A stretch of 64,000 nucleotides of DNA from Candidatus Limnocylindrales bacterium. GTDB taxonomy: Bacteria > Chloroflexota > Limnocylindria > Limnocylindrales > CSP1-4. Positions 1,676-60,426 of the stretch are shown piece after piece (position 1 is the first letter of the stretch; each line of letters starts with the position of its first letter). Position numbers and translations under genes: made by a program. The notes under the pieces are model-generated. The model was not told the DNA's origin. It saw only the letters and a list, made by a program, of their open reading frames with translations, and searched no databases. The DNA lies in assembly GCA_049521175.1 (NCBI GenBank), contig JBEKPB010000006.1, positions 41,296 through 105,295 on the forward strand, given 5' to 3'.

Positions 1676-2443
1676 GTGCCCGTTCCGCGCCTCTACGTCA
1701 CCGACGCGATCGTCCTGTCCCGCTTCGATTTCGGCGAGGCGGATCGGGTCATGACGCTCTTCACGCCCGAGCACGGCAAGCTCAAGGCGATCGCCAAGGG
1801 CGTGCGCCGGCCGACCAGCCGCCTGGGCGGAGCGCTCGAACCCCTGGCAGAACTGAGAGTGGCTCTGGCCCGCGGCCGGACCTTCGACGTGGTCACGCAG
1901 GTCGAGGTCACCCACGCCTGGCTGCGTCTGCGCGACTCGCTGGAGTCCGCCGCGACCGCCTGGTATCTGGCCGAGCTGGCGGACCGCTCGATCGAGGAAC
2001 GCCACGAGGCCGAGGGTCTCTATGCGCTGCTGCGCCGCGCCTACGAGCTGCTGGATGCCGGCATGGAGTCTGGCAGGGTCGCCCGCTGGTACGAGATGCA
2101 CCTGGCCGACGAGCTGGGCGTCCGCCCGGAGGTCGACCGCTGCGTCGAGTGCGACCGCATGCTCGAGCCGGACGAGCAGTTCCGGTGGGTGCCGCCGCTC
2201 GGCGGCCTGCTCTGCGCCCGCTGCCCCGGGCCGGCGATGGATCGGGCCGGCATCTCGGTCGATGCGGTCAAGGTGCTCAAGGCATACCAGCGGATGGATG
2301 TCGAGGCGCTTGCGGCGCTGCGCCTCCCGCCGGCAGTCGAGCGCGAGGTCGAAGGCGCGATGCGCGACTTCCTGCACGTCTCCCTCGAGCGCGACGCCCG
2401 CTCGCTCGATTTCCTCGACGAGGTCAGGCGAGGTTCGCGCTGA
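1676..2443 (+). CDS. recO: DNA repair protein RecO
   Basis: 255 aa. N-terminal OB-fold signature YVTDAIVLSRFDFGEADRVMTLFT. C-terminal zinc-finger CVECDR...CARC. Confidence 0.85.
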   Translation: MPVPRLYVTDAIVLSRFDFGEADRVMTLFTPEHGKLKAIAKGVRRPTSRLGGALEPLAELRVALARGRTFDVVTQVEVTHAWLRLRDSLESAATAWYLAELADRSIEERHEAEGLYALLRRAYELLDAGMESGRVARWYEMHLADELGVRPEVDRCVECDRMLEPDEQFRWVPPLGGLLCARCPGPAMDRAGISVDAVKVLKAYQRMDVEALAALRLPPAVEREVEGAMRDFLHVSLERDARSLDFLDEVRRGSR

Positions 2444-2457
2444 CGACGCCGGCCGCC

Positions 2458-3126
2458 CTATCGCTTGCGAGCGCGTCGGCGGCCCTTTGGCGCGCGAGCT
2501 CGAGCCCCGGTGCCGGCAACCGCCGGTCCGGTGCCGCGGAACTCGATCAGGTGCCGGCGCATGATGCCCTCGGTCCTGAGAACCGACATGGCCATCCCGC
2601 TGCCCAGCACCAGGTCGCCCCGGTTGATCCTGAGCATGATCCGGGCAACGGGGCCGAGGGCCTGCCGGTCGGCGAAGCCGCTGGGATCCTCGATCTGGAG
2701 CCTCAGCTCCCGTGGAGAATCCGGATACTTCCCGTCGCCGACGGTCGCAACCTCGTTCCATGATATCGGGCGCCGGCTGGGGAACGCCTCCCACCAGGAG
2801 GTCGGGCGGTTACCCGGGAACAGCTCGAACCCCTCCCTCGCGACCAGCAGGCGCACCGGGCTGGCCAGATGCTGCATGTCCATGAGGGAGCCCCTGATCC
2901 CGTATAGCACCAGCGTGAAGCCGCCGGCCGCATAGGCCAGACCGATGATCGTGTTTCCCGAGGACAGGTCGCCACTTCCCATGTAGGCGCCGAACAGTCC
3001 GAGCGGGACCATGCAGATCTCGAAGATCATCCTCAGCTTTGTCCTGCGGGTGTCGTCATAGATCGCGACCGCCGGCCCGAGGGCCGGGTGGCTGATCTTG
3101 GACTCGGCGGGCTGATCCGAAGCCAC
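2458..3126 (-). CDS. Hypothetical membrane protein (N-terminal TM pair plus PH-like/YdbS-like domain)
   Basis: 222-aa ORF immediately downstream of response regulator gene. Hydrophobic N-terminus. No recognisable catalytic motif. Confidence 0.4.
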   Translation of the reverse strand: MASDQPAESKISHPALGPAVAIYDDTRRTKLRMIFEICMVPLGLFGAYMGSGDLSSGNTIIGLAYAAGGFTLVLYGIRGSLMDMQHLASPVRLLVAREGFELFPGNRPTSWWEAFPSRRPISWNEVATVGDGKYPDSPRELRLQIEDPSGFADRQALGPVARIMLRINRGDLVLGSGMAMSVLRTEGIMRRHLIEFRGTGPAVAGTGARARAPKGRRRARKR

Positions 3127-3221
3127 GGGCTCTTCTCCTGACGATTGACGGGCGCCTCGCGCGCGCTGCCCATCATGACGGGTCAGGCCGGACCGGGTGC
3201 CGCGTTCGGCCGAGCCGAGAG

Positions 3222-3725
3222 CTACCCTCGGTCCGCCGAGATCGGGTCGGCGTCACGGGATGGGTCCTCGGGACCGCCGCCGCCGGCAGAACGAGCATTC
3301 GAGGTCGCGGTCTTGCGCGCCAGTGCCATGGCGACGCTGGACGCAAGCTGGTCGGCCGTGAACGGTTTTTGGAGCAGCAGCGCGCTGGCAGTGTGGGGCG
3401 CGGAAATCTCGGCGACGAGTTCGGGCGAGTACCCCGAAGTGAACAGAACGGCTGCCTCGGGGTGGCTGCGGTGCACTGCACCGGCGAGCACCGGGCCGCG
3501 CATGCGGGGCAGCATCACGTCGGTCAGAAGCAAGTCTATCGGCGTGGTGATTCGCGACGCCTGCGCGAGCGCGTCACGGCCGTCGCTCGAGACGATGACC
3601 TCGAAATTGAGGGCCTTCAACCACCTCGTGGTGATCCCGGCCACAGAAGGGTCGTCCTCGACGAGAAGTACCGTCAGAGGCCGCGTTGGCGTCGAAGACC
3701 GGACCTCATCCGGATCGGAACCCAT
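3222..3725 (-). CDS. Response regulator, receiver (REC) domain only, canonical Asp
   Basis: LTVLLVEDDP...IDLLLTDVMLPRMRG...LFTSGY...QKPF. Classic DD, D, T, K receiver residues. No output domain. Confidence 0.75.
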   Translation of the reverse strand: MGSDPDEVRSSTPTRPLTVLLVEDDPSVAGITTRWLKALNFEVIVSSDGRDALAQASRITTPIDLLLTDVMLPRMRGPVLAGAVHRSHPEAAVLFTSGYSPELVAEISAPHTASALLLQKPFTADQLASSVAMALARKTATSNARSAGGGGPEDPSRDADPISADRG

Positions 3726-3965
3726 GCCGAGTCCATACCTGCTTCACGCGCTCAGCATAGGCCTTCTCTGGGCCGGTTCAAACTCACCTATCGGCCGTGC
3801 AAGCTTCTTCGTTGCCAAGGCGGGTCGCACCCACCGGGCTCGCATGCGAGAATTACGCCCCGAGCGTCCAGCCGCTTGGCCGTCTCGAGATCCGAGCGGT
3901 TCGATCGCCCGCCCGTCCTAGATCAGCCCGCAGGAGGTTCACAGCCCCTGCCCGAGGAGACAAGA

Positions 3966-5378
3966 GTGACCGCCGCACAGCCGACACCGCCGGCCGACGA
4001 CCCGGGGCCTTCCGTCGCCAACCTCGAAACGATCGTCTCGCTGTCAAAGCGGCGCGGCTTCATCTTCCCGAGCTCGGAGATCTATGGCGGCATCAACGCC
4101 GTGTGGGATTACGGGCCACTCGGCGTCGAGCTCAAGAACAACGTCAAGCGAGCCTGGTGGCGGACCATGGTCCAGGAGCGCGACGACATCGTCGGCCTGG
4201 ACGCGGGCATCATCATGGCACCTCAGGTTTGGGTCACCTCCGGCCATGTCGCCAGCTTCACCGACCCACTCGTCGAGTGCCAGACTTGCCGGCGACGCTT
4301 CCGCCTCGACGAGCTGCCGGGCGCCGAGAACCTGACCAACACCGAGCTGGCCGACCCGACGGTCGTCGACCGCCTGGGCCTCAAGTGCCCGGTCGACGCC
4401 GGCCCGCTCTCCGCCCCGCGCCGCTTCAACCTGATGTTCAAGACCCACATGGGGCCGGTCGAGGAAGAGGGCAACGAGGTCTACCTGCGCCCGGAGACGG
4501 CCCAGGGCATCTACGTCAACTTCCGCAACGTCCGCGAGACGAGCCGTAAGAAGCTGCCGTTCGGCATTGCCCAGATCGGCAAGGCATTCCGCAACGAGAT
4601 CAGCCCCGGCAATTTCGTCTTCCGGATGCGCGAGTTCGAGCAGATGGAGATGCAGTACTTCGTCAAGCCCGAGACCGCGGCGGCTACGTTCGAGGCGTGG
4701 ATGCCAAAGCGCCTGGCCTGGTACGAGCGCTACGGCGTGACGCCCGAGCGGCTGCGCTTCCGCGAGCACCGCCCGGACGAGCTGGCCCACTACGCCAAGA
4801 AGGCCGTCGACATCGAGTACCGCTTCCCGTTCGGCTGGAAGGAGCTCGAAGGCATCCACAACCGCGGAGACTGGGACCTGGGCCGCCACCAGGAAGCCAC
4901 GGGCGAGAACCTCGAGTACTTCGATCCCGCCACCGAGGAGAAGTACGTGCCCTGGATCGTCGAGACCTCGGCCGGCGGCGATCGGGCGGCCTTCACGTTC
5001 CTGATCGACGCCTATCGTGAGGAAGAGGTCCGCGGCGAGAAGCGCGTCGTGCTGGGCTTCAACCCGGAGCTCGCCCCATACAAGGTGGCGGTCCTCCCGC
5101 TGCTCAAGAAGCGCGACGAGATCGTCGAGAAGTGCCACGCCATCCGCGACGATCTGGCCCGCGACATCATGGCGGTCTACGACGACACGGCCGCGATCGG
5201 CAAGCTGTACCGGCGCCAGGACGAGATCGGCACGCCGTGGTGCGTCACGGTCGACGTCGATTCACTGGAGGACGGCAAGGTCACGATCCGGGACCGCGAC
5301 TCGATGGAACAGATTCGGGTCGACATCTCGCAGGTGAAGCCGCTCATCCTCGAGCGGCTCGCGGAGGCAAGAGGTTAG
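3966..5378 (+). CDS. glyQS: Glycine--tRNA ligase (dimeric class II type)
   Basis: SLSKRRGFIFPSSEIYGG...WDYGPLGVELKNNVK motifs. GTG start at 3966 preceded by GGAGGA. About 470 aa. Confidence 0.9.
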   Translation: MTAAQPTPPADDPGPSVANLETIVSLSKRRGFIFPSSEIYGGINAVWDYGPLGVELKNNVKRAWWRTMVQERDDIVGLDAGIIMAPQVWVTSGHVASFTDPLVECQTCRRRFRLDELPGAENLTNTELADPTVVDRLGLKCPVDAGPLSAPRRFNLMFKTHMGPVEEEGNEVYLRPETAQGIYVNFRNVRETSRKKLPFGIAQIGKAFRNEISPGNFVFRMREFEQMEMQYFVKPETAAATFEAWMPKRLAWYERYGVTPERLRFREHRPDELAHYAKKAVDIEYRFPFGWKELEGIHNRGDWDLGRHQEATGENLEYFDPATEEKYVPWIVETSAGGDRAAFTFLIDAYREEEVRGEKRVVLGFNPELAPYKVAVLPLLKKRDEIVEKCHAIRDDLARDIMAVYDDTAAIGKLYRRQDEIGTPWCVTVDVDSLEDGKVTIRDRDSMEQIRVDISQVKPLILERLAEARG

Positions 5379-19204: not shown

Positions 19205-20011
19205 TCAACGGATCGGCCACAGGATTTCGGTGCGGAGTGCGCCGGCGTCCCCGACCTGCTCCGGGCCGACCAGATAGACCTCGCGGGGCGGTCCTGCCGT
19301 CTCGTGGCCGTGCTCCTGGACCCATTCGCCCAACGCGCGGTAGGCCGGAGCTATCTCCTCGTACCGGCCGGCGTGGACCGTCGTCGCAACCAGGCCGCCG
19401 GGGATCGTGGTGGCGATCACGCGCCCCGTGGGCCCGATCGGCTCGGCGACCGGCATGCCGACCTCGAGGTCCACCTCGGCTTCAGCGGATTCGGCGCTGT
19501 GGTAGATGCCGTAGGCGGGGCCGGCGAACCTGACGCACTGCTGGCCCGCAACCCCAAAGACCTCCAGGAGCGCTGCGGAGATGAACGATCCAAGGTCGGA
19601 CCAGGGCGCCCGGCCTCGGATTGACGCAGCAGGCTGTGGCTCCGTCTCCCGGAGATGGATCTCGTATGTCATCGGTGGCTCCTCGCGCAACATCGAATCG
19701 AGCAAGGAGATGGCGTAGCGCCGCCGATCGGCCTCTGCCTGGAGTCTCTCCCGATGGGCCTCAAGCAGAGCCTTCGTCCCGGCGGTGTCGCTGGCGAGGA
19801 TCGCTCGGATCTCCGGTAGCGGCATGTCGAGGAATCGCAGGGTCCTGATCCGGTCCGCGTCCTCCGCCTGAGCCATCGAGTAGTAGCGATAGCCCGTGTC
19901 GGGATCGACAGCGGCAGGAGGCAGCAGGCCCAGCTCGTCGTAATGACGGAGCGCCGGGATCGAGAGCCGGCAGATCTCGGAGAACCGACCGATCGGTAGC
20001 AGGTTCCGCAT
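19205..20011 (-). CDS. MerR-family transcriptional regulator with C-terminal GyrI-like effector domain
   Basis: N-terminal IGRFSEICRLSIPALRHYDELGLL HTH. Coiled-coil region. C-terminal about 150-aa GyrI-like fold. Confidence 0.8.
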   Translation of the reverse strand: MRNLLPIGRFSEICRLSIPALRHYDELGLLPPAAVDPDTGYRYYSMAQAEDADRIRTLRFLDMPLPEIRAILASDTAGTKALLEAHRERLQAEADRRRYAISLLDSMLREEPPMTYEIHLRETEPQPAASIRGRAPWSDLGSFISAALLEVFGVAGQQCVRFAGPAYGIYHSAESAEAEVDLEVGMPVAEPIGPTGRVIATTIPGGLVATTVHAGRYEEIAPAYRALGEWVQEHGHETAGPPREVYLVGPEQVGDAGALRTEILWPIR

Positions 20012-20117
20012 CGCGTTCCTCCGTCAGCCTGGATCGAACCGGATCCAGGCTCGTTTGGCGCGACCAGCCTGGATCCTCAGGCAACCGGAGAGTCAAGCCC
20101 GACGACCGGTATCCGAT

Positions 20118-21685
20118 CTTAGAGCCTGAGAACCAATCGTATTGGGCAAAGGCGGGCGATTGGATCAGGCTTTCGCGAAGTTGATCGGGGAGCGGGACCA
20201 TCGAGATGTTGTCCAGACACGGCCCGCGGCGCAGTGGAGCGACGGGGGTGGCGATGGTGACGTTCCGCCCCGGGTGCCTCGCGTCAGGCGGCGCTGGCCG
20301 CTGAGCGCAATGCCGCTGTCCGCATGAGGTTGTGAGCCAGGGCGAACCAGAGGAGCACGGCTCTGGCCTTCGCCCTGCCTCGGACGCCGAAGCGCTGCAG
20401 GCCTCGATTGCGGGCGATGGCGTTGACGCACTCGGCGGTGGCGGCCCGGTCTTTGTAGATCTCCTTCGCTTGCGGCGTGCCCATCCGAGTGCGCCAGTCG
20501 GCAACGGCGGGCGAGTCCGATGGAAGCGGCAGATACGGGTCGCGACCCCGGACCTCAGGGGTGCGGACTGGCAGGTAGAGGGTCGTGCCGGCTTCGGGGG
20601 CAGCGAACTCCTCGATCTCGGCGCTGGCCAGAAAGCCGGCGTCGGCGAGCCAGGCGCCTGGTGCGCGGCCGTATCTCGTGCGTAGCTGGCGAACCATCGG
20701 GCCAAGCTGGCCTGATCGGTGCCAGCGTTGGTCAGGTCCAGTCCGACGATGACCTGGCTGCCCGTATCGGTCACGAGCTGGGCGTTGTATGCGGGTCTCC
20801 AGCCGCCGTCGGCCATCTTCATGACGCGGGCCTCCGGATCGGTTGTGGAGGCCCGGGCATCCTCTGGGGGCTTGCCGCGCTTGGCGTTGCGCTTCTTGGC
20901 GGCTTCGAGTGCCGGCAGATGGGCGAGAGCATGTCGAACCCTCTCGGCCCGCTCTCGTGTGGCCCGCTCTCTCGCTGCGGCGACCCGCCGACTGCTTGCA
21001 CCCGGGTCGTCATCGAGTTCGTTCTTGAGGGCGCGGACCTGGGCATCGGCTTGTGCGAGGAAGCGCTCGAGTCTGTCTCGGCGGCGGTATGAAGCCGCAC
21101 CTGCGGCTGCTCGGACCCGGACGCCGTCCTGGGCGACCGCGACCATGGTCACCAGGCCATCGGCCAGGAGCGCCGCGACGCTCTCTGTGAGGAGCCGATC
21201 GAGGACATCGGCGTGCTCGACCCGGAACGCCGCGAGGGTGTGATAGTTGAGCCCGACCCCGCCGGCAAGCCAGCGGTATCCATCGTGCTCCTCACACAGC
21301 CGGTCGAGCGCCCTGGCGCTGCCGACGCCTTCGAGCGTCGCGTACAGCCACAGCGCCACGAGGATTGCAGGATCGATCGGTGGCCGTCCCGGATGGCCCT
21401 CGATTGCCTTGATGCGCGTATACAGCGGCGTGAGATCGAGCCCCTCCACGAAGGCCCACACGAGGCGAGCCCGATGGTCGGGGCCGAGGAGGCCGTCGAG
21501 ATCGACCGAACGCAGCTCGAGCTGGCCCCGGTTCGGTAGCTGGAGGCGCGGTACGCCTGCCGCCTCCTGGTGCTCGTCTGGCTCGGCGAGTGGGAGTGCG
21601 AAGAGAGTGTCGTCCATGCCGAGAATCGTAGCTGCGAGGAGGTCGGCTGGGAATCCCTGAAACCAATAGATTCACAGGCTCTTAG
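20118..21685. mobile_element. IS1182/IS5-family insertion sequence (about 1.57 kb) with imperfect terminal inverted repeats
   Basis: Left end cttagagcctgagaaccaatcgtattgg at 20118-20145. Right end ccaatagattcacaggctcttag at 21663-21685. The ends match 16/19 positions as an inverted repeat. Encodes one transposase. Confidence 0.65.
20284..21617 (-). pseudogene. IS1182/IS5-family DDE transposase, split by a frameshift near 20.69 kb
   Basis: N-terminal frame LAEPDEHQ...RLQLPNRGQLEL...TDPEARVMKMADGGWRPAYNAQ. C-terminal motifs LADAGFLASAEI...KEIYKDRAATAECVNAIARNRGLQRFGVRGRAKA are in another frame (20284-20697). The six-frame ORF 19761-21617 reads through into merR antisense. Confidence 0.65.
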
Positions 21686-33738: not shown

Positions 33739-35046
33739 TTAGCCGATCTCCGGGGCGGGCGCCGTCTCGGCCCGCGCCGCCGTCGGGATCTCGTGCAGCG
33801 ACCGGACAGGCGACGCCAGAACCCACAGGAACGCGGTCGAGGCGACCGTCGCACCAATGAGGACGGTGGTCCGCAGCGGCAGGAAGGTGGCCAGGATCCC
33901 GCCCACGACCGATCCGAGCGGCATGGTTCCCCAGACGATGAACCGCATCGTGGCGTTCATGCGGCCTTGTATGTCCAGCGGCGTGATCGCCTGACGGAAG
34001 CTGACCTGGTTGACGTTGTAGACGACGCTCGAGAAGCCCATCAGGAATTGCGACGCGATGAGCATCGCGCCGGCGACGACGGCTTCGTTCGGGAGGAAGA
34101 CGATGATGAAAGTCGCCGGGCCGGACACGAATATCGAGCCAACGATGACGGGCCCGACTCCAAGGCGTCTGGCCAGCGGCGCGGCCGCGAAAGCGCCGAG
34201 GAGAACTCCGAGACCGGCGATGCTGAACGCCGCGCCGACCAACGCGGCCGACAGGTTGAGCTCGACGTAGGCGTAGACCGGGAAGATCGAGAAGGCGATG
34301 GTTGTGCCGAGATTCGACGTCCCCGTCGAACCGGCGATCATCCGCAGGTACCGGTTCCCGGCGACATACCTCAGACCCTCGGCGATCTCCTGGCGCAGGC
34401 TCGTATCGACCTTGCGATCGGGTTTCGGCTCGTGTTTGCGCACGAGTGAGATGAGGCCGCCGGAGACCAGAAAGCTGACGGCGTCGACAATCACCGCGAA
34501 TGGTGCGCCCACGAACCCGATGATCCCGCCGCCGAGACCGGGCCCCACGATCTGCGCAGCCGAGCTCGACATCTGAAGATTGGCGTTGCCTTCGACCAGG
34601 TCGCCTGGATCCAGCAGGACCGGCAGGTAGGACTGATCGGCGACGTCGAAGAAGACCGTCAGGAAGCCCGTCGTGAATGCGACGACGTAGAGCTGCCAGA
34701 TCGTCAGCACGCCCATGGCAAATGCGATCGGGATCGAAAGAAGAGCGATGGCGCGACCGATGTCGGCCGCGATGAGGACGGGCCGACGGCGCACCCGATC
34801 CAGCCAGGCCCCGGCTGGCAGCGTGAAGAGGATGAACGGGAGCATCTCGGCCGCCCCCAGGAGGGCCACTTCGAAGGCCGAAGCGTTCAGCACCTTGGCG
34901 GCGATGTACGGGATGGCGAGCAGGCTCACCTGCGAGCCCATCTGGCTGATCGTCGCGGCCGACCAGATCTTCATGTACTCGCGGTGGCGCCACAGCGAGG
35001 CCCGGGGGGTCACGACGGGGGCTGCGTCGGTCACGGGATCGGGCAT
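33739..35046 (-). CDS. MFS transporter (EntS/drug-exporter-like)
   Basis: 435 aa from ATG MPDPVTD. 12 TM helices. The 491-aa six-frame ORF is extended upstream. Confidence 0.8.
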   Translation of the reverse strand: MPDPVTDAAPVVTPRASLWRHREYMKIWSAATISQMGSQVSLLAIPYIAAKVLNASAFEVALLGAAEMLPFILFTLPAGAWLDRVRRRPVLIAADIGRAIALLSIPIAFAMGVLTIWQLYVVAFTTGFLTVFFDVADQSYLPVLLDPGDLVEGNANLQMSSSAAQIVGPGLGGGIIGFVGAPFAVIVDAVSFLVSGGLISLVRKHEPKPDRKVDTSLRQEIAEGLRYVAGNRYLRMIAGSTGTSNLGTTIAFSIFPVYAYVELNLSAALVGAAFSIAGLGVLLGAFAAAPLARRLGVGPVIVGSIFVSGPATFIIVFLPNEAVVAGAMLIASQFLMGFSSVVYNVNQVSFRQAITPLDIQGRMNATMRFIVWGTMPLGSVVGGILATFLPLRTTVLIGATVASTAFLWVLASPVRSLHEIPTAARAETAPAPEIG

Positions 35047-36122
35047 TGCGCCATGGTACCCAGGCCGCCACTCGCCGCCTCCGGCGCCGCGTTCGACGGT
35101 CGCGTGGCCGCTGCCTCCGTTCTCCGACTGCTTCCGCGCTGACCCGTTGCGAGGCTGGCCGTGTGCGCTAATTCCGACCAGGCAGGAATTGGGTCGCAAT
35201 GGCGACCTCGCCACCCGCGCTCAGGCGTCGGATGGGCCTTCTCGACCCCTGCGCTGAGCGTGGATTGGGCGACTGGTGGCCTGCCGATCCTCTGGGGACC
35301 CGCAGCTGCGCAGCAAGGCTCTTGCCAATTCCCGGTCCGCGGGAATTGGGCAGAAGCAGACTCCGGAAACGGGGCCCGTGTGTGGGTGCCGGAACGGCGG
35401 TGCCCACGCTCGGCCGTCGCGAGGCAGCACGGAACGAACCAGGTTCGCGTGCGCCGTGATGCGGTCGCGGCGAGGAGTCCGAGAAGGCCCGCCGCGGCCG
35501 ACATCGCGCAGGCAGAGATGAGCGATATCCAGCCGCCTCGACCCTCCTTCAGGACCGCGGCCAGACCGGTCAGGACGCCGGCTAGGGCCAGGAACGAGAG
35601 CCGGAGAACGGCAAGGTGCTCCTGGGACGTGGCGGCTTCGGCCAGGTCGGCCTGACGGTTTTGCTCGGCCAGCTCGGAGAGGAGCTGCGGTGTGGTCGCG
35701 TTCAGCAGGCCGGCGGTATACGGGTCTACGGGTTTGCCGCCGGTCGTGGCGGAAGTGGCCGCAAGGGCGGCCCGCAGCTCCGTGAACGCCGACTCCTCGG
35801 CATTGCCGATCGCTATCGACGTGGCGTCGTCGTTCTGGATTCCCGCTATGCCGCGGGCAGCGGACTCCATGCTTAGCATGAACGCGGTCTGCTGCGCACC
35901 CAGGGCAGAGTCGGACGCCTGCCCGCTGACCGCTATACGCGCAGAGAGGTCAGCGGCGAGTCGAGCGGCCTCGAGATTGGCACGTGTCGACGCCTGGCTC
36001 GCGTTCATCTCGACGACTGCCAGCAGCGCCGCCAGCACGGCGATGACCCCGATCAGCACGGCTGCGACCAGGTCGAAGCGCCGCTCGGCGCGAAGCTCGG
36101 CCGCGGAGTCGGGCGCGATCAC
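35031..36122 (-). CDS. Hypothetical membrane protein (TM, about 150-aa Ala/Gln-rich segment, 2 TM, degenerate tail)
   Basis: ORF plus hydrophobicity only. C-terminal 100 aa look non-protein-like. Confidence 0.35.
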   Translation of the reverse strand: MIAPDSAAELRAERRFDLVAAVLIGVIAVLAALLAVVEMNASQASTRANLEAARLAADLSARIAVSGQASDSALGAQQTAFMLSMESAARGIAGIQNDDATSIAIGNAEESAFTELRAALAATSATTGGKPVDPYTAGLLNATTPQLLSELAEQNRQADLAEAATSQEHLAVLRLSFLALAGVLTGLAAVLKEGRGGWISLISACAMSAAAGLLGLLAATASRRTRTWFVPCCLATAERGHRRSGTHTRAPFPESASAQFPRTGNWQEPCCAAAGPQRIGRPPVAQSTLSAGVEKAHPTPERGWRGRHCDPIPAWSELAHTASLATGQRGSSRRTEAAATRPSNAAPEAASGGLGTMAQCPIP

Positions 36123-36610
36123 AGCAGCACCGCAACGGCCACGGCAAGCGCCGCGCCGCCCACCAGAACAACCGCACCAAGCCGTAGCAACACGGATCGG
36201 CGGCGCTTGAACGGCTGGGCCAAGACGCCGAGGAACGCGGCTGCGCTCGTCGGCAGCAGGGCAAGGGCCATGACGTCCGCCTTGTGGGCGAGCTTGTCGC
36301 CGGTTGCCTGTAGGCCGTCGGGATCGAGCTTGAGCAGATCCGGGTTCTGAGCGCGCAGGTCCGCCAGTGTCTTGCCCAGATCGTACCCGCCCGACCCGAG
36401 CGCATAGACCGGCTTCGTTGCCAGATCCGAGCTCGGCGCCAGCGCCGCGACTATCTGGCCCTGGACATTGGCCTCAAGCAGGAGGCCCTCGTGCACCGCT
36501 CCACTTTGTCCCTGCGCGGCGGGGACCATCTGTTGCTGGACGATGCGGGCCTCCGCGATGCGGATCGCCACGGGAAGTTCCGACTGGTAGAGGAAACGCA
36601 CGTCCTCCAA
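36119..36610 (-). CDS. Hypothetical protein with C-terminal TM anchor
   Basis: ORF in operon-like array. ATGA overlap with downstream gene. Confidence 0.35.
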   Translation of the reverse strand: MEDVRFLYQSELPVAIRIAEARIVQQQMVPAAQGQSGAVHEGLLLEANVQGQIVAALAPSSDLATKPVYALGSGGYDLGKTLADLRAQNPDLLKLDPDGLQATGDKLAHKADVMALALLPTSAAAFLGVLAQPFKRRRSVLLRLGAVVLVGGAALAVAVAVLL

Positions 36611-36631
36611 CGCGCCGGCCGATCGCTTGAC

Positions 36632-36835
36632 CTAGGTGCGGAGGGCAGACTGCCACGTTTCGGTCGCGGAGCTGGAGATCATCGCGGCGGCGAAGCCGAT
36701 CAAGGCCGCAACGATTGCAGCGGCGGTTAGAAGGACCGCGACCCCGGTGTGGCCGCGCTCATGACCCGCGCCGATCTCAGACACGGCAATGGCCGGCGAC
36801 TCGGACGCGGTCGGTTCGAGTGCCTCCCCGGTCAT
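36632..36835 (-). CDS. Hypothetical small membrane protein
   Basis: 67-aa ORF with one TM helix. First gene of the array. Confidence 0.3.
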   Translation of the reverse strand: MTGEALEPTASESPAIAVSEIGAGHERGHTGVAVLLTAAAIVAALIGFAAAMISSSATETWQSALRT

Positions 36836-37009
36836 GGACTCCCTCGCTTCGACTCAGGTGGTGATGACTGAGCCACTCTAGCGCCGGCAGCCGGAGGACG
36901 CGGCCCGGAACCGCAGCGTGGGCGCTGCCACCTTGAGCCGCCGGGGTACGAGTCGTGGGTCGGAGCCGGCCGGCAGGTGAACGGCCGAGGCTCGCCGAGC
37001 CGGTCGCCG

Positions 37010-39352
37010 CTATGCGACCGGGATCACGTACACGTAGTTGCCTTCGCGGCCGCTGTAGATCTTCGCCTGGTGCCAGGGAACGTAGTCGGTGCCAAGCGCC
37101 CCGACCGGGACGTTCGCGTCCGGTGGCCGCGACTTGGGCCAGAGCTTCGACACTCGCGGATACCAGACGTCTTCGATCCGGACCGAGATGATCGTGAACG
37201 TGTCGGTCTGAGCCGGATCGGCAGTGGCCGTGAAGCCGGACACGACCCAGGAGTGCCAGCCCTTCCAGACGAGCAGGCCGGCCGGACGCCCGGTCAAACG
37301 GATCTGCTTGACGACGACGTGCAGCGCGTCGGCCATCTTGGGCTTGGCGCCCACCTGGTAGTTGCCATAGCCGAGCGACGCCAGTCCTTTGGCCCAGCCG
37401 TTCGGGTCGGCTCCACCGTAGTAGCCGCCACCGAGCGAAAAGGCCAGGTCCTGGAGCTTGGCCTGGGTGTCTCGCGTGGCGTCCGGGACGACGCTCATGA
37501 TGTTCATCGAGGTCTGCATCGCGGCGGGCACGCACCAGGTGTCCACGAATTCGCTGACGAAGTCGCCGGGCTGGTAGAGGTCCATGGCGAAGACGCCCGG
37601 CGTCATCGAAGGCGCGAGCGTCGGTTGAAGGGTGGCGGACGATGAGGCGGAGGCTGACGCACTCGGGGCGACGGCCGTGACCGATGGGCCTGCGGCTATC
37701 ACGGGCGCCCTGGTTCCCCCGACCCGTGCCCACGGCGTGATCTGCGGACCGCCGCCGATCGCGACCTGGCCAAGAGCCTGGCTGCCCGCGAAGACCGTCC
37801 CGGCGCCGAGAGCGACCGCCACGATCGCGATCAATGCCAACCGGCCTGCGGGGATCGCCCTGCGCGTCCCGCCGACCGCGGCGCCCCAACGCTCCCAAAC
37901 CGTGCCCCACGACCACGGCGAGATGGCACCGATGCGGCTCATGCGCGGCCGCAGGAAGAGGCCGAGTACGATGACCCGCACCGCCTGGAACGTCACGTAA
38001 CCGATCGGCAACGCTGCCAACCCCACGCCGGTCGACAGAGTTGTCGTCACGACGACCCCCGCGATGAACCCGACCAGGACCGCGATCGTCGGCTCCAGGG
38101 TGTTGTGGGTTGCCATGATCGCTCGCGCCAGGAGCTCGACGAGGCTTTCGAACGGGACTGAGATGGCCAGGATGACCAGCACGAGTGTCAACCGAGAGGC
38201 ATCCGTGTCGTCAAAGGCCCCACCCTTGAACAGTCCGGCGATGAAGCCGGCGAGGGCGGCCAGGGCCGCCGCGGCGAGGATCGAGAAGAACGCGATCGTC
38301 AGGAAGTTGGTCCGGAAGATCCTCCGAAAGCCGCTCCGGTCGCCGGCGGCGGCAGCTGCTGATAGGGCGGGGAAGGCGGCCAGCGCAAAGGCGACGCCGA
38401 CGACGTTCTCGGCGGTGCTCTGGAAGTCCTGCGCGTAGGCGACGGAGGTCGTCGAGCCAGGCGCAAGAGTCGAGGCGATCCTGGTGAAGTAGGCCGCGAA
38501 GAACCAGACGAGCGCGGAACTCGCCATTCTCGGGAGGATGAGCCAGGCGAACTCGCCCACGCCTTTCGTCCGGAGCGACAATGAGAGCCGCGGGCGGAAA
38601 GTGGTGCGGTAGATGCCGACGAGACGTACCCCAAGGTGGGCCAGCCCGCCGACCAGGGAACCGATGGCGGCGCCGTAGATTCCCATCGGGCCGCCCAGCA
38701 GAAACGCGCCGGCCGCGAGTCCCGCGTATGAGGCGAACTCGGCCAGACCGTAAGTCCACCATCGCCGTTCGGCGACGAGCACCTCGCCGAGGACCATCGA
38801 GGCGGCTATCGCAAGCTGGCCGGCGCAGACGACTCGCACCAGGTTCACGTACAGGTCGCGCTCGCTGGCCTCGAACCCCGGCACGGCAATAGAGGCGATC
38901 TGTGGCGCGAGGATGAAGAGGGCCGCGATCGCCAACCCCACCGTGATCAATGCCGCCGTGAGGATGGTCCGGGCGAATTCGCGAGCGGCCTCCTCCGCTT
39001 CGTCCTTCAGCCCGACGAAGAGCGGCAGGAACGGCCCCACGACACCACCCAGCACCAGGATGGTGACCGGGAAGGAAACGAGGTAGGTGGCGGAGGTGAG
39101 GGCGTCTGTCTCAGGCCCGGCACCGAAGACGTGGGCGAGCACCTTCTTGGCGAGGAAGCCCGAACCCGCGTTGACCACGAACAGGGTGCCGAGGATAACC
39201 GCGCCTCTGGGCAAGCCGGCTCGTACGAGGTTCCTGACCCGCCCGACCAGGCCGCGCCGTTCGCCGGGCGGCTCGTCTCCATAGAGCGCGGCCCCGGCTG
39301 CCCCGACCCTGCCCGGCATGTGGCGGCGCGGCGTCTCGTCTACCCAAGGCAA
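37010..39352 (-). CDS. murJ: Lipid II flippase MurJ/MviN fused to an extra TM helix and a C-terminal extracytoplasmic papain-like (C39-like) domain
   Basis: MurJ core LAKKVLAHVFGAGPETDALTSATYLVSFPVTILVLGG. Extra TM GRLALIAIVAVALGAGTVFAG. C-terminal domain has candidate catalytic residues DTWCVPAAMQTSMNIM and GWHSWVVSGFT. Confidence 0.75.
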   Translation of the reverse strand: MPWVDETPRRHMPGRVGAAGAALYGDEPPGERRGLVGRVRNLVRAGLPRGAVILGTLFVVNAGSGFLAKKVLAHVFGAGPETDALTSATYLVSFPVTILVLGGVVGPFLPLFVGLKDEAEEAAREFARTILTAALITVGLAIAALFILAPQIASIAVPGFEASERDLYVNLVRVVCAGQLAIAASMVLGEVLVAERRWWTYGLAEFASYAGLAAGAFLLGGPMGIYGAAIGSLVGGLAHLGVRLVGIYRTTFRPRLSLSLRTKGVGEFAWLILPRMASSALVWFFAAYFTRIASTLAPGSTTSVAYAQDFQSTAENVVGVAFALAAFPALSAAAAAGDRSGFRRIFRTNFLTIAFFSILAAAALAALAGFIAGLFKGGAFDDTDASRLTLVLVILAISVPFESLVELLARAIMATHNTLEPTIAVLVGFIAGVVVTTTLSTGVGLAALPIGYVTFQAVRVIVLGLFLRPRMSRIGAISPWSWGTVWERWGAAVGGTRRAIPAGRLALIAIVAVALGAGTVFAGSQALGQVAIGGGPQITPWARVGGTRAPVIAAGPSVTAVAPSASASASSSATLQPTLAPSMTPGVFAMDLYQPGDFVSEFVDTWCVPAAMQTSMNIMSVVPDATRDTQAKLQDLAFSLGGGYYGGADPNGWAKGLASLGYGNYQVGAKPKMADALHVVVKQIRLTGRPAGLLVWKGWHSWVVSGFTATADPAQTDTFTIISVRIEDVWYPRVSKLWPKSRPPDANVPVGALGTDYVPWHQAKIYSGREGNYVYVIPVA

Positions 39353-39973
39353 CCGGCTAGTCCTCCGTGGCCGCTCCGGCGACGATCGTGGCGCTGGAGC
39401 GGGGCCATCTTAGACGTCGGGCGACGGGCCGGGCCCGAGCGTTGTGGCGCGTCGCCGCGCACGAGACCAAATCCGACCATCCGCGGGCCATCCTTGGCAG
39501 CGATGCGAGGGCATCCAGCTCCATGAGGACCTCACACGACGCTGTCCTGGCCAACGCGGGGCGCTAGCCGGTCGATCTGCCGGCGGCGCCGGCGAAAGGC
39601 GGGTTCAGGTTGCGTCCGGTTCTGTGGAGGCCTGGCGAACCTAGCCGCCGAGCAAGGTCAAGACTTCGGTGACCGTCGGTTGGCCGTCTATGCCGCCGAG
39701 CCGTCGGGTCGACAGCGCGCCTGCGCGGCGAGGTCGCCGTGGAGTCGATCGCCGCGCGAGGGCCGCGATCGAGGCGTTGAGTGGGCGGTATTGCTCGCTC
39801 TGGTGGCGTCAAGCGGCTAGCCTTGGGGCGCTGGTGGTGCCGCCGGCCACGCCGAGCGGATCGGGCTCTCAACTCCAGGGATGAAACCGACTGTCCGCAG
39901 CCTCCCGAACGGGGTTTCCAGGTGAGAGGATGTTCGTTGCCTCACTGACAGTCCTGACAGGAGATAGATCGCC

Positions 39974-40969: not shown

Positions 40970-41159
40970 CTTAGTCATGTCAGGGTGGTCCGCCGAGAGG
41001 TCCCACCAGGCTGTTGGGCTGAAGCTGGGACTTCGACCCAATCGGTCGGCCGCCACGGTAGGTCGGATGGGGCCCGCGCCTGGAATGCGTGGGTCGATCG
41101 GGCGGGTGGTCGGACAGGTCGAACGCCGCGGGCGCCAAAAGCGTCTGTCTGGCAGGAGA

Positions 41160-43120
41160 GTGTATTTGGCGTCTGGAGTAGCCGCAGAAGTCAAGAGCAA
41201 GCTGTCGATCGTCGAGGTCGTCGGCGAGGCGGTTCAGCTGCGCAAGGCCGGGACCACTTACAAGGGGCTCTGCCCGTTTCACGGCGAGAAGACCCCGAGC
41301 TTCGTGGTAACCCCGGCCCGCGATAGCTGGCATTGCTTCGGCTGCGGCGAAGGCGGCGACATCTTCAGCTTCATCATGAAGCGCGACGGGCTGACCTTCC
41401 CGGAGGCGCTCAAGCGCTTGGCGGCGAAGGCCGGCATCGAGATCGACGAGCGGACGAGCCGCGAGGACGCCCGGCGGGCTCGACTCCGCGAAGTCCTCGA
41501 GCAGGCGATCGCCTTCTACCACGTCGTCCTGACGCAGTCGAAGACGGGCGCGCCGGCGCTCGAATACCTGCACGGCCGGGGCTTCACGGACGAGACGATC
41601 GAGAAGTTCCAGCTCGGGTGGGCGCCCGATGGCTGGGACCAGATGATCAAGATGCTCGGAACCCGCCGCAACGTGAACGTTGCAGAGCTGGCCGAGGTGG
41701 GGCTGACCAGCGCTCGACCGAACGGACGCGGGGCGTACGACAAGTTCCGCTCGCGGGTCATCTTCCCGATACGCGACGCGACCGGGGCGGCCGTCGGCAT
41801 CGGCGGGCGGGTGCTGCCGGGCGCGGTCGCGGTCACGGACTCGAATGCGCCCAAGTACCTCAACTCTCCGGCGACTGCGCTGTTCGACAAGAGCCGGACG
41901 CTGTACCTCATTGAGCGGGCCCGGGGTGAGATGCGCCGTAACGACGAGGCGGTCCTTGTCGAGGGGTACACGGACGCGCTGATGGCCCACCAGGCCGGTT
42001 TCGAGAACGTAGTCGCGAGCCTGGGCACGGCGCTCACTCCGGCGCAGGTCGCGCTGATCTCCCGCTATGCCCGCGAGATCGTCCTCGCCTACGACGTCGA
42101 TCCGGCCGGCCAGCATGCCGGCTCGATCGGTGGCGCCGAGCTGTTCCGCCTCATCGGCGCCCTTGCCGCCGAGGAGACGGGCGTCGAGATCACTCGCGTC
42201 CGGGTGGCGCGACTGCCCGAGGGCAAGGACCCGGACGAAGTCATTCGCGATAACCCCGATCTCTGGCGGGAGTCGATCCGGACCGCCCAGCCGATCATGT
42301 TGTTCCTGATCGACTACTACGCGAAGGCCTTCAACATCCGAACGGCTGAAGGCAAGCGCCATGCGGTTGATGCCCTGATTCCCCTGTTGCGCCAGGTCAA
42401 CCCCGTCGTCCGCGACGACTACCTCCAGGCGCTCGCCAACCGGACCGGGGCGGACTACCGATCCCTGCTGGAGGAGCTGCACGCACCGGAACCGGCAGGG
42501 CGGGGGAGCGGCGGCCGAAATGAGGGGGCGAGCGGTTCTTCCGGACGGTTCACGGCCGAGACGATCATGGCTTCGCCAGACTCGATTGACACGAGAGCCG
42601 AGCTGAAGGCCCTAACGCGGGACGAAGGCCGCCTGCTGCGCCTCCTCCTGCTCGTGCCGGAGCAGCAGGAACGTGTCGCCGAGACTCTCGCCGCCCAGAA
42701 CCTGCAGCTTCCCAGCACGCCGGCACGCGAATTGCTGGCCGCGATGCTGGCGGATCGGGAGATCGATCGCGAGGCCGGTGGCTCCGGAAAGTTCGAACGG
42801 GGCCGCTTCCTCGAAGCATTGGCACCTGAGCTCCACGGCCTGGCCATCGCTCTCTACGCGGAACGTGGCCCGGACCCGAACGATCTGGCCGGCGACCGCG
42901 TCCGTATAGGAGTCGACCAGTGCCTGCTCGCCCTCGAAGGGGACAGGCTCGAAGAGGAAATCCGTTTCAACGCCAGCGAGTTGACCGAGGCCAAAGCCGT
43001 CGGGGACTCGGGGGCCGTCACTCAATTGCAAGAGACACAACGCAACCTATTCGAGGCTCGTCGATCGCTCGACCGACGTCGGCAAGACACGAGTCTCCTC
43101 GCTTCCGCTGGAGGACACCG

Positions 43121-43124
<4 letters not shown>
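41160..43124 (+). CDS. dnaG: DNA primase
   Basis: Zinc ribbon [13 protein letters not shown]...[25 protein letters not shown]. Start GTG 41160 or TTG 41166. Stop overlaps rpoD ATG. Confidence 0.9.
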
Positions 43125-44839
<1,715 letters not shown>

Positions 44840-58159: not shown

Positions 58160-59002
58160 TTGGTCGCGCCGGAAGTCGTGACGCTTCTTCTCAAGCTTCT
58201 GGCGGCGCTTTGGCTGGTCGCGACCGCAGCCACTACCGCTGCGCCGACGCCAGCCCCTACCGCACTGCCGACACCGGTACTGGCGCCAACGCCGACCGAT
58301 TGGTCGCTCAACCTCTACAACTCCGATGGCGTCCGCTACCAGAACCCTGACGGCGAAGCCTGCACTGCGGCAACAGTCGAGACGGCCCTGAACCTCGCGA
58401 GCCTCGACGGCCAGCAGCCTCCCTACTGGTCGCCCTCCACGAGCTATGCGACCGAGGAAGAGTTGTTCCGGTACGAACGAGCGCACATGACCATGCCATC
58501 GGACGTGCCAGGCTCGGACCCTCACGGCGTCCGCAACGCGCTCAACTACTTCGGCTGGGGCTCCATGGTCGCGGGCGTCTATACGGACGTTGCCCCGTCT
58601 GCCTTCGGCGCGGCCGCCAAGGCTATCGTCTCGTCGATCGCCAGAACACGCAAACCAGCCATAGTGTTCGTTATGGCTGGAGGGCACACCCAGCTCGTGA
58701 CGGGCTACACGGTGCACGGCTCGAACCCTGCGACGAGCGACGGCTTTACCATCGTTGGCATCTACCTAACGGATCCACTCCTGGGATTCCTGTCACTGAC
58801 CGGCGGCAACGGTGTGACCCAGACGTTCGCCGCGGTTCACATGAACAGCTGGGTCAGCCTTCGAGATTGGCGCTATGGGCCGGTAGCGGTCCGGTTCTCG
58901 GAGTACTGGCAGAAGGACTCCTGGATGCGCGACCCCATCGACGGCAAGGTCGGTCGCAACGAGTGGTACGGCCGTTTCGTCGCCGTCATCGCCACCCGCT
59001 AG
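58160..59002 (+). CDS. Secreted papain-like (C39-like) cysteine peptidase-domain protein; paralog of MurJ C-terminal domain
   Basis: Signal peptide LLLKLLAALWLVATAATTAAP. NPDGEACTAATVETALNL (Cys) and GGHTQLVTGYT (His). TTG start with GGAGAGGGAAG. Confidence 0.5.
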   Translation: MVAPEVVTLLLKLLAALWLVATAATTAAPTPAPTALPTPVLAPTPTDWSLNLYNSDGVRYQNPDGEACTAATVETALNLASLDGQQPPYWSPSTSYATEEELFRYERAHMTMPSDVPGSDPHGVRNALNYFGWGSMVAGVYTDVAPSAFGAAAKAIVSSIARTRKPAIVFVMAGGHTQLVTGYTVHGSNPATSDGFTIVGIYLTDPLLGFLSLTGGNGVTQTFAAVHMNSWVSLRDWRYGPVAVRFSEYWQKDSWMRDPIDGKVGRNEWYGRFVAVIATR

Positions 59003-59334: not shown

Positions 59335-60426
59335 TTGCGGTCAGCGTATCGATCGAGCATTGCTGCATTGCCCGTCGCCCTCGCTATGGGCTTGACGATG
59401 TTCGTCGGATCGCTCACCTGGCAGGTGCCGGCCGCCAAAGCCTCCTCCGCGCCCCTGGACGCGCAGGCGTCGGAGCTGGTCCGCCTGATCAATGGCGCCA
59501 GAGTTGCTGCGGGCCACAGGGCGCTGAATGTGGATCCCTTCCTGGCGTCGGTGGCTCGAGACGGGGCCATTCCGTGCCCGGATGACGCAAGCAAGACGAT
59601 TGCCGGCCGAGCCCAGGACTTCGCCGCCTTCAACGCCATGTCCCACCTCCTGCGGTTGTGCGACGCCCCTTCCTACACGCTCTCGACTACCGAATTCGTC
59701 AGCGTGCTCCAGTCGCACTGGGGTTACGGCTCCGTCGGTGAGATCGATGTGGTCAACGGCGGGTACGGCAACGGCGCGTACCTCTACTCATACAGCGGTT
59801 GGCAGACCTGGACCTACTCGACAACCGGCCACGCCATGCTTGGCTGGCAAGGGTCGAGCTCCCACTGGGCCATCATCATGGGCGCTTACGACCGCGTCGG
59901 TTGCGGCGGTTGGGCGAACGGCAGCACCTACTACTACGACTGTGCGTTCAGCAGCGGCGGTCCGAATGGCGTGCAGGCGCCGCCGACCGCGTCCCCGTTC
60001 GACCTTCCGCTTCCGACGCCGATTCCCAAGCCGACGCAACCGCCTGCTCCTCGCCCGGTCGTAACCGCGGCGCCGGTGGCGACGCATCGTGCAACTGTCT
60101 CCGGCGGCGGGAGCGGAGGTTCGGGCGCGGGCCCCACCCCGACCGCCGGCCAGACCCCCACCGCGGATCCGTCGCCGACACCGGCGCCGAGCTCCACGGC
60201 GGACGCGGCCCTGGAGGCCAGACTGATTGCGGATGCCACGGCGACAGATCCTGCAGGCCCGGCTGCCGCTCTGCAGGTGAACCCAAAGGGACTCGATGGC
60301 CCATCCGGTTTGGCCGCCTTGGCGGCGCTGGTGATTGCCCTCGCCACAGCCGCCGGAGCGACGGTCCTGGGTGCTCTCTCGCTCCTGCCGTCTATCCGGC
60401 GCCGCCGGCGCGGAACAGCCGGCTAG
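59335..60426 (+). CDS. CAP/SCP/PR-1-like domain protein with signal peptide, Pro/Thr linker and C-terminal TM anchor
   Basis: LINGARVAAGHRALNVDPFLASVA and HWAIIMGAYDRVGCG CAP motifs. C-terminal LAALAALVIALATAAGATVLGALSLLPSIRRRRRG. Confidence 0.65.
   Translation: MRSAYRSSIAALPVALAMGLTMFVGSLTWQVPAAKASSAPLDAQASELVRLINGARVAAGHRALNVDPFLASVARDGAIPCPDDASKTIAGRAQDFAAFNAMSHLLRLCDAPSYTLSTTEFVSVLQSHWGYGSVGEIDVVNGGYGNGAYLYSYSGWQTWTYSTTGHAMLGWQGSSSHWAIIMGAYDRVGCGGWANGSTYYYDCAFSSGGPNGVQAPPTASPFDLPLPTPIPKPTQPPAPRPVVTAAPVATHRATVSGGGSGGSGAGPTPTAGQTPTADPSPTPAPSSTADAALEARLIADATATDPAGPAAALQVNPKGLDGPSGLAALAALVIALATAAGATVLGALSLLPSIRRRRRGTAG

Follow-up and report, generated by a model that had tools for sequence, protein, structure and literature searches.

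A MurJ-family flippase fused to a predicted extracytoplasmic C39-like cysteine peptidase domain in Limnocylindrales

Gene and protein organization

The DNA analysed here (the window) is a 64,000-nt stretch of the genome of Candidatus Limnocylindrales bacterium (Chloroflexota), and all coordinates below are positions in this window. On its reverse strand, at 37010..39352, lies a complete gene for a 780-aa protein in which a MurJ-family flippase is followed in the same chain by a C39-like peptidase domain. The open reading frame (ORF) contains no internal stop and ends with the stop codon at 37010-37012. The Shine-Dalgarno sequence GGAGGA (39361..39366, reverse strand) can be read directly 8 nt upstream of the TTG start codon (39350-39352); an alternative ATG start, located 11 codons downstream of the TTG, is used in the 769-aa versions found in databases. 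The 780-aa protein is identical to NCBI MGA3030183.1. The GC content of the window (65–71%) fits that of the class, 68.9% (PMC10608941).

An earlier note on this DNA described the product as an unambiguous MurJ over the N-terminal 520 aa, followed by an additional hydrophobic helix, a Ser/Ala/Pro linker and a C-terminal domain with Cys and His motifs. The helix (residues 502–528), the linker and the domain are all present, and the quoted motifs DTWCVPAAMQ and GWHSWVV contain Cys607 and His700, respectively. The description of the N-terminal part had to be revised, as shown below.

Flippase core and transmembrane topology

The MOP/MurJ core comprises transmembrane (TM) helices 1–12 (residues 49–473; 37934..39208, reverse strand), as delineated by Pfam, phmmer, the AF2 model and Foldseek. 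Pfam MurJ (PF03023) matches residues 72–472 with 147.5 bits at a gathering cut-off of 27.4. The PDB chains closest by sequence are MurJ (phmmer; E. coli-type MurJ 7waw, E 3.9e-14). The full-length AF2 model, with a pLDDT (predicted local distance difference test) of 79.5, contains 12 core helices up to residue 473, and its 15 best Foldseek matches are all MurJ (7waw E 2.8e-14, target TM-score 0.79).

The MurJ alignments all stop near residue 430–472. PF03023 is covered from position 1 to 404 of 451 and the NCBIfam model TIGR01695 from 19 to 431 of 506 (432–506 unmatched), while T. africanus MurJ is matched at residues 23–399 of 475. The homology to MurJ ends at about residue 473, i.e. at the end of TM12. 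Since only one more TM helix follows, the N-terminal 520 aa do not form a complete canonical MurJ.

The core is followed by a cytoplasmic, probably interfacial loop rich in Arg and Trp (residues 474–501; 37850..37933, reverse strand; assigned from the AF2 model and the alignment). The loop is modelled with low confidence (pLDDT <50 at 480–499); its alignment-averaged K/R is 5.7, and R470, R488 and R497 are conserved. The next element is a single 13th TM helix (residues 502–528; 37769..37849, reverse strand), which is predicted to lead the chain outside. Hydropathy averaged over 65 homologs has its peak at residues 499–527 and likewise gives one TM helix after the core. In the model the canonical MurJ TM13–14 hairpin is thus reduced to, or replaced by, this single helix, and the extra 15th TM helix assumed previously from the sequence gives way to a total of 13 helices.

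The alignment-averaged number of K+R is ~19 on the predicted inside loops versus ~1 on the outside loops. Together with the odd number of TM helices this bias places the C-terminal domain, by prediction, outside the cell. The outward orientation proposed in the earlier note is therefore retained, and the signal-anchor, CWB2 and fn3 relatives of the domain described below agree with it.

The helix and the domain are connected by an extracytoplasmic linker rich in Ser, Ala, Pro and Thr (residues 529–587, ~59 aa; 37592..37768, reverse strand), which is disordered judging by pLDDT (<50 at residues 526–540 and 554–584). About 10 residues past the last TM helix the linker contains the motif TPWAR (residues 539–543; 37724-37738). 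Among 65 fusions T539 is invariant and P540 and W541 are at least 90% conserved, with the remaining linker being variable and disordered; the motif is absent from a standalone homolog (P0074). TPWAR could serve in docking to the flippase or to the membrane surface.

C-terminal peptidase domain

Residues 588–780 (193 residues; 37013..37591, reverse strand) form a C39-like papain-fold cysteine peptidase domain. The predicted nucleophile Cys607 (37532..37534) is where helix H30-42 of the domain model begins, and the catalytic base His700 (37253..37255) lies at the start of a β-strand (E123-132), both assignments coming from the family alignment and the domain model. The family alignment adds Asp728 (37169..37171), the third member of the triad, at the end of the next β-strand, and Glu601 (37550..37552), which occupies the position of papain Gln19 in the oxyanion hole, 6 residues before the nucleophile. 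All four codons are on the reverse strand. Taken together, the helix N-terminus carrying Cys, the two successive strands carrying His and Asp, and the oxyanion residue at position -6 make up a papain-like geometry.

Sequence conservation in the family is high, namely 486/487 for Cys, 508/509 for His and 480/498 for Asp, and the full C-H-D triad is found in 406 of 426 members (95%). The Cys and His picked in the earlier note are thus the conserved, predicted catalytic residues (C607 and H700), and they are joined by Asp728. Position -6 from the Cys is always Glu (259) or Gln (226); Glu601 is invariant in the fusion-type subfamily, and Gln is found in the paralog subfamily. The whole protein contains only two cysteines, C176 and C607. 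As the sole Cys of the domain, C607 does not take part in a disulphide.

Among solved structures, the folds most similar to the domain are those of the C39 domains fused to transporters in PCAT1, ComA and LahT-type proteins. Further matches are a phytochelatin-synthase-like protein, staphopain, UfSP and streptopain, and no NlpC/P60 or CHAP structure is among the fold matches listed. At the sequence level the domain is an orphan. When the window proteins were scanned with Pfam and NCBIfam, it remained without a match, and neither phmmer nor a 118-sequence family profile gave a meaningful match to any PDB sequence. PF03412 is matched at E<=1 neither by the window protein nor by the 118 members, and NlpC/P60 (PF00877) and CHAP (PF05257) are matched by the domain neither in sequence nor in fold. 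Peptidase_C39_2 (PF13529) gives no match for the window domain and stays below its cut-off in 8 of the 118 relatives (best E 0.019), among which C70 and DUF3335 are the other recurrent sub-threshold matches. A profile search of 1.84 billion representatives yielded 955 clusters (50% identity) at E<=1e-3. The domain is a previously unrecognised family within the C39/papain clan.

The search with profile models that had been recommended for this domain thus returned no family above cut-off, and it was the fold search that gave the papain-like C39 assignment. A non-enzymatic fold, which the earlier note had allowed for, was not found: the fold is that of a peptidase and the triad is kept in 406 of 426 members.

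Relatives of the domain

The window contains a second, free copy of the domain at 58160..59002 (forward strand), and its relationship to the fused domain, claimed previously, is borne out by BLASTP (27% identity over 167 residues, E 1e-10) with Cys and His aligned. This paralog consists of an N-terminal signal or anchor, a Pro/Thr/Ala linker and the domain, with Cys68 (58361-58363), His176 (58685-58687) and Asp205 (58772-58774) as catalytic residues. It is identical to NCBI MGA3030197.1, a “hypothetical protein” from the same contig of a metagenome-assembled genome (MAG) as MGA3030183.1. Its 129 homologs are all annotated as hypothetical. Directly after the paralog lies a 363-aa ORF (59335-60426, forward strand) without a Pfam match; its product looks secreted and has a Pro-rich segment, a terminal TM helix and an RRRRR tail.

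Standalone relatives begin with a signal anchor or a lipobox-like N-terminus, followed by Pro/Ala/Ser/Thr-rich linkers. Four proteins show other architectures (P0377, P0383, P0365 and P0448): two carry three CWB2 cell-wall-binding repeats, one carries two fn3 domains (1196 aa) and one ankyrin repeats. Several paralogs of the domain occur per genome, as is common for wall hydrolases. The top fold matches among the predicted viral structures of BFVD are a cyanophage peptidoglycan-binding protein and a Gordonia phage endolysin (TM-score 0.59/0.59), and two mycobacteriophage Lysin A proteins and cyanophage lysozymes are found as well. Peptidase_C39_2 is catalogued as one of the enzymatically active domains of lysins in phages of Gram-positive hosts (PMC8223927), and both C39 and C39_2 associate with transporters (PMC10318531). 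From the signal anchors, the CWB2 and fn3 fusions, the lysin-fold matches and the occurrence of C39_2 in lysins we infer that the domain acts in the cell envelope, with wall peptides as the most economical substrate.

Occurrence of the fusion

A search with the full-length protein returned more than 120 full-length homologs (714–820 aa, 51–100% identity), every one with PF03023. Identical or 99–100% identical proteins are present in independent NCBI, JGI and ENA assemblies, and identical ORFs are found on up to 25 contigs. The GTDB species representatives were scanned with the fusion-type alignment; this gave 141 relatives, and the best 80 loci were analysed by tblastn. All 80 are from Chloroflexota MAGs (soil, fen, peat and freshwater habitats), and all named relatives are Chloroflexota/Limnocylindrales. 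An actinobacterial origin is rejected on the strength of these relatives and of the fitting GC content. MurJ and the domain share a single frame in 62 of these 80 loci. In nine others the frame is broken and MurJ immediately precedes the domain; most of these come from long-read assemblies, which have indels inside MurJ also. The remaining loci are eight standalone domains and one truncated case. The survey of MurJ C-terminal fusions suggested in the earlier note thus shows the architecture to be conserved among these loci.

The frame breaks between or within both parts in those nine loci, and the calling of the domain as a separate gene at L001 and L003, could suggest two adjacent genes merged by an assembly or sequencing error, but this reading is effectively refuted by the single frame in 62 species together with the full-length homologs, by the identical ORFs in independent assemblies, by the mostly long-read origin of the broken cases with several indels inside MurJ itself, and by the separately called domain genes beginning inside TM13. 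A one-off merger had also been considered when the isolated domain, used as the query, retrieved only proteins of 170–346 aa, and it was ruled out. The longer of these matches start inside TM12 of the MurJ core (“LPIGYVTFQAVRV...LRPRM”) and are therefore contig-truncated fusions.

Some individual loci deserve mention. At L060, a short-read fen MAG, MurJ (query residues 1–536) and the domain (508–775) lie in different, overlapping frames at 2386-4468; in contrast to the long-read cases, the two parts may here have truly separated into two genes. P0002 starts with ~55 foreign-looking residues (Lys/Ile/Asn-rich, as if encoded by low-GC DNA) joined straight to TM13 and probably represents a chimeric assembly. 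At L069 (1634-2071), L073 (1607-2047), L070 (5581-6084) and L079 (6530-6802), further copies of the domain are encoded immediately next to the fusion gene, on its upstream or downstream side.

Gene neighbourhood

In the window the fusion gene has a housekeeping context (DUF2461, dnaG, rpoD, MFS, GDSL and PPDK), and the contexts of the standalone paralogs are unrelated to one another. The neighbourhood was considered as a clue to function and gave no help, the contexts being either housekeeping or mutually unrelated.

The dnaG-rpoD pair (40977-44839, forward strand) lies divergently upstream of the fusion gene with DUF2461 in between. The pair is directly adjacent to the fusion in the distant homologs L086 and L088 (56–57% identity) and is separated from it by three genes (DUF2461, a PAS histidine kinase and SHOCT) in L087 (67%). 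The vicinity of dnaG-rpoD is a conserved housekeeping location that recurs in some lineages only.

The first gene downstream of the fusion (36119-36850, reverse strand) corresponds to a membrane protein of ~240 aa in relatives that has no Pfam match. In the window its reading frame is interrupted by a stop codon (…SALRT*VKRS…) at a position occupied by Glu in homologs, so that in this genome it is either a pseudogene or a sequence error. The second downstream gene (35031-36122, reverse strand) overlaps the first by 4 nt. Its product has 220 aa in relatives; the window version runs to 363 aa and ends in a junk-like stretch, pointing to the loss of a stop codon or to a frameshift around residue 210. 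This pair of small membrane-protein genes occurs in only 11 of the 80 related loci, is missing from L004, the closest relative, and is therefore a variable cassette. An otherwise housekeeping region also harbors a mobile element, a 618-aa ORF with a DUF772 transposase domain (19761-21617, reverse strand).

Comparison with known systems

With the MurJ/MviN proteins of known structure (E. coli, T. africanus and S. aureus) the fusion shares PF03023 and the 12-helix core of N-lobe and C-lobe, and they are its best matches in both sequence and Foldseek searches. Canonical MurJ, however, has the TM13–14 groove hairpin and both termini in the cytoplasm, whereas the fusion has one helix here and a C-terminus predicted to be outside.

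The peptidase-containing ABC transporters (PCATs) PCAT1, ComA and LahT likewise have C39 fused to an exporter. Their C39 domain is N-terminal and cytoplasmic, belongs to an ABC transporter and cuts double-glycine leaders. The domain of the fusion, in contrast, is C-terminal and predicted to be extracytoplasmic, belongs to a MOP flippase, is ~60 residues larger and does not match PF03412. Peptidase_C39_2, represented by B. anthracis 3erv and by phage endolysins, is matched only by the relatives given above, in every case far below the Pfam cut-off.

The mycobacterial MurJ (Rv3910) has 14 TM helices and a 334-aa intracellular extension with a pseudokinase, which has a regulatory role (PMC6180346). 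The fusion shares with it a large C-terminal extension, but its own is predicted to be extracellular and is apparently enzymatic, and no kinase-like Pfam match was obtained for the protein. The actinobacterial MurJ proteins with pseudokinase extensions, to which the earlier note had referred, are thus not close analogues, the present organism being a chloroflexote and the extension having a papain fold and a predicted outside location. Fusions of VanZ/lipocone domains to lipid-carrier flippases of the MviN/MATE clan are known (PMC12419801). Our literature search turned up no account of a MurJ-family protein that carries a papain-fold peptidase on the extracytoplasmic side, in agreement with the earlier impression that the architecture had not been described; the proteins themselves exist in public databases, with the domain unannotated.

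A parallel in concept is provided by hydrolases under the control of FtsEX (CwlO, PcsB, RipC and the EnvC-amidases), where a transporter-like membrane machine positions or controls an extracytoplasmic wall hydrolase. The link there is non-covalent and involves an ABC-type module and NlpC/P60, CHAP or M23 hydrolases, and it has no connection with precursor flipping.

Proposed function

The covalent connection of the two parts suggests a physical coupling between the export of wall precursor and the cutting of wall peptides. In the mechanism that we favour, and which we regard as evenly balanced between right and wrong, the MurJ-family flippase would carry an active peptidase cleaving wall peptides, so that wall opening or trimming is coupled to precursor supply. 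By alternating access, the 12-helix MOP core (residues ~49–473) would move its cargo, a wall precursor linked to polyprenyl diphosphate and probably lipid II, from the inner leaflet to the outer one. The single helix 502–528 would bring the end of the chain outside the membrane, where the flexible linker of ~59 residues would tether the 193-residue peptidase. The triad Cys607/His700/Asp728, with Glu601 at the oxyanion-hole position, would then cleave peptidoglycan stem peptides or cross-links. As cleavage would take place within reach of the exit of new precursor, wall opening or trimming would be spatially coupled to supply.

Several observations weigh against this mechanism. On the peptidase side, the fold is closest to C39 peptidases that process proteins and peptides, not to the known peptidoglycan hydrolases (NlpC/P60, CHAP); phage lysins are matched only weakly (E 1e-4 to 1e-3, TM-score ~0.55–0.59), and no PHROGs family matches the domain by sequence. 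Hydrolases do not usually have Glu in place of Gln at the oxyanion-hole position. No peptidoglycan-synthesis genes are found nearby, either in the window or in five other contexts. On the flippase side, the score against the NCBIfam MurJ equivalog TIGR01695 is 144.7 bits, below the cut-off of 235.55; with 13 helices (12+1) the protein lacks TM14; and the residues aligned to E. coli R18, R24, R52 and R270, of which R18, R24 and R270 form the E. coli triad, are A62, A68, V96 and D309, none of them cationic. Because of these three features the cargo is possibly not lipid II. The assignment to the MurJ family, supported by the 147.5 bits of PF03023, therefore stands, but the missed equivalog cut-off and the non-cationic positions do not allow it to be called unambiguous.

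TM13–14 are described as a feature of MurJ homologs only, in which they provide the polyprenyl-tail groove. Even the divergent S. aureus MurJ has both helices; its triad is relocated to K22, R176 and K302 (10.64898/2026.06.21.733627). Owing to this relocation the non-cationic aligned positions are weak evidence. The core of the fusion has conserved cations of its own (K/R70, R173, R196/197 and R410), which may substitute for the E. coli triad by analogy with the S. aureus protein, and its invariant Asp83 aligns with E. coli Asp39. On balance we consider lipid II somewhat more likely than not to be the cargo.

Alternatively, the substrate of the peptidase might be the flipped precursor at its exit from the flippase. 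The stem peptide could be trimmed in a carboxypeptidase-like manner, a blocking group could be removed, or Cys-based transpeptidation could proceed through a thioester acyl-enzyme. The protein would then be an extracytoplasmic counterpart of the PCATs, whose C39 domain cuts the cargo during export. The transporter-fused C39 domains as the nearest solved folds speak for such processing, as does the conservation of the covalent transporter fusion in at least 62 species; the conserved TPWAR near the membrane could dock the domain close to the exit, and the Glu specific to the fusion type may reflect an altered chemistry. On the other hand, the linker is disordered over its ~59 residues and there is no hint of a fixed position of the domain over the cavity, standalone members of the same subfamily occur without a nearby MurJ (L002), and the model has a pTM (predicted TM-score) of 0.61 and carries no docking information. 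We hold processing of the cargo to be unlikely, though worth serious consideration. A more specific form, a single-chain machine that flips and processes, in which the peptidase trims the stem peptide of lipid II or of the nascent strand or, as a papain-fold transpeptidase, transfers it via a thioester, is clearly unlikely; the loss of TM14 and the change of Gln to Glu would be adaptations to this role.

It would also be conceivable that the domain is a protease that matures or degrades secreted or surface proteins or peptides, as C39, staphopain and streptopain do, and that the flippase merely anchors or co-localises it. A 12-TM flippase is an expensive anchor, though, given that a single helix suffices for the paralogs; the CWB2 fusions and the likeness to phage-lysin folds point to the wall, and no candidate substrate gene is conserved nearby. 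We judge this explanation distinctly improbable. Very improbable is a non-catalytic sensor that binds wall fragments or precursor and regulates the flippase, comparable to the extensions of mycobacterial MurJ. Inactive C39-like domains typically lose the Cys, and the almost complete conservation of Cys and His and of the triad as a whole (95%) disfavours such a role.

Biological implications

How precursor delivery is coordinated with cutting and trimming of the wall is a long-standing question. The links of this kind known to us, such as that between FtsEX and its hydrolases, are non-covalent and do not involve a flippase. In the Limnocylindrales protein, an entire uncultured class-level lineage hard-wires a MurJ-family flippase to an extracellular (as predicted) and apparently active cysteine peptidase, and such a natural “Rosetta-stone” fusion leads one to expect that flipping and peptide processing are functionally linked. 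With ~955 clusters at 50% identity, the domain represents a family of considerable size within the C39/papain clan that lacks annotation; its two members in the window are currently labelled only as “MurJ” or “hypothetical protein”. The fusion also indicates that TM14 is not indispensable to a protein of the MurJ family, a point relevant to the role proposed for the TM13–14 groove. If the flippase and the peptidase indeed act as a single machine on the precursor or nascent strand, wall assembly in Limnocylindria would include a step, new to science, that is coupled to the flippase.

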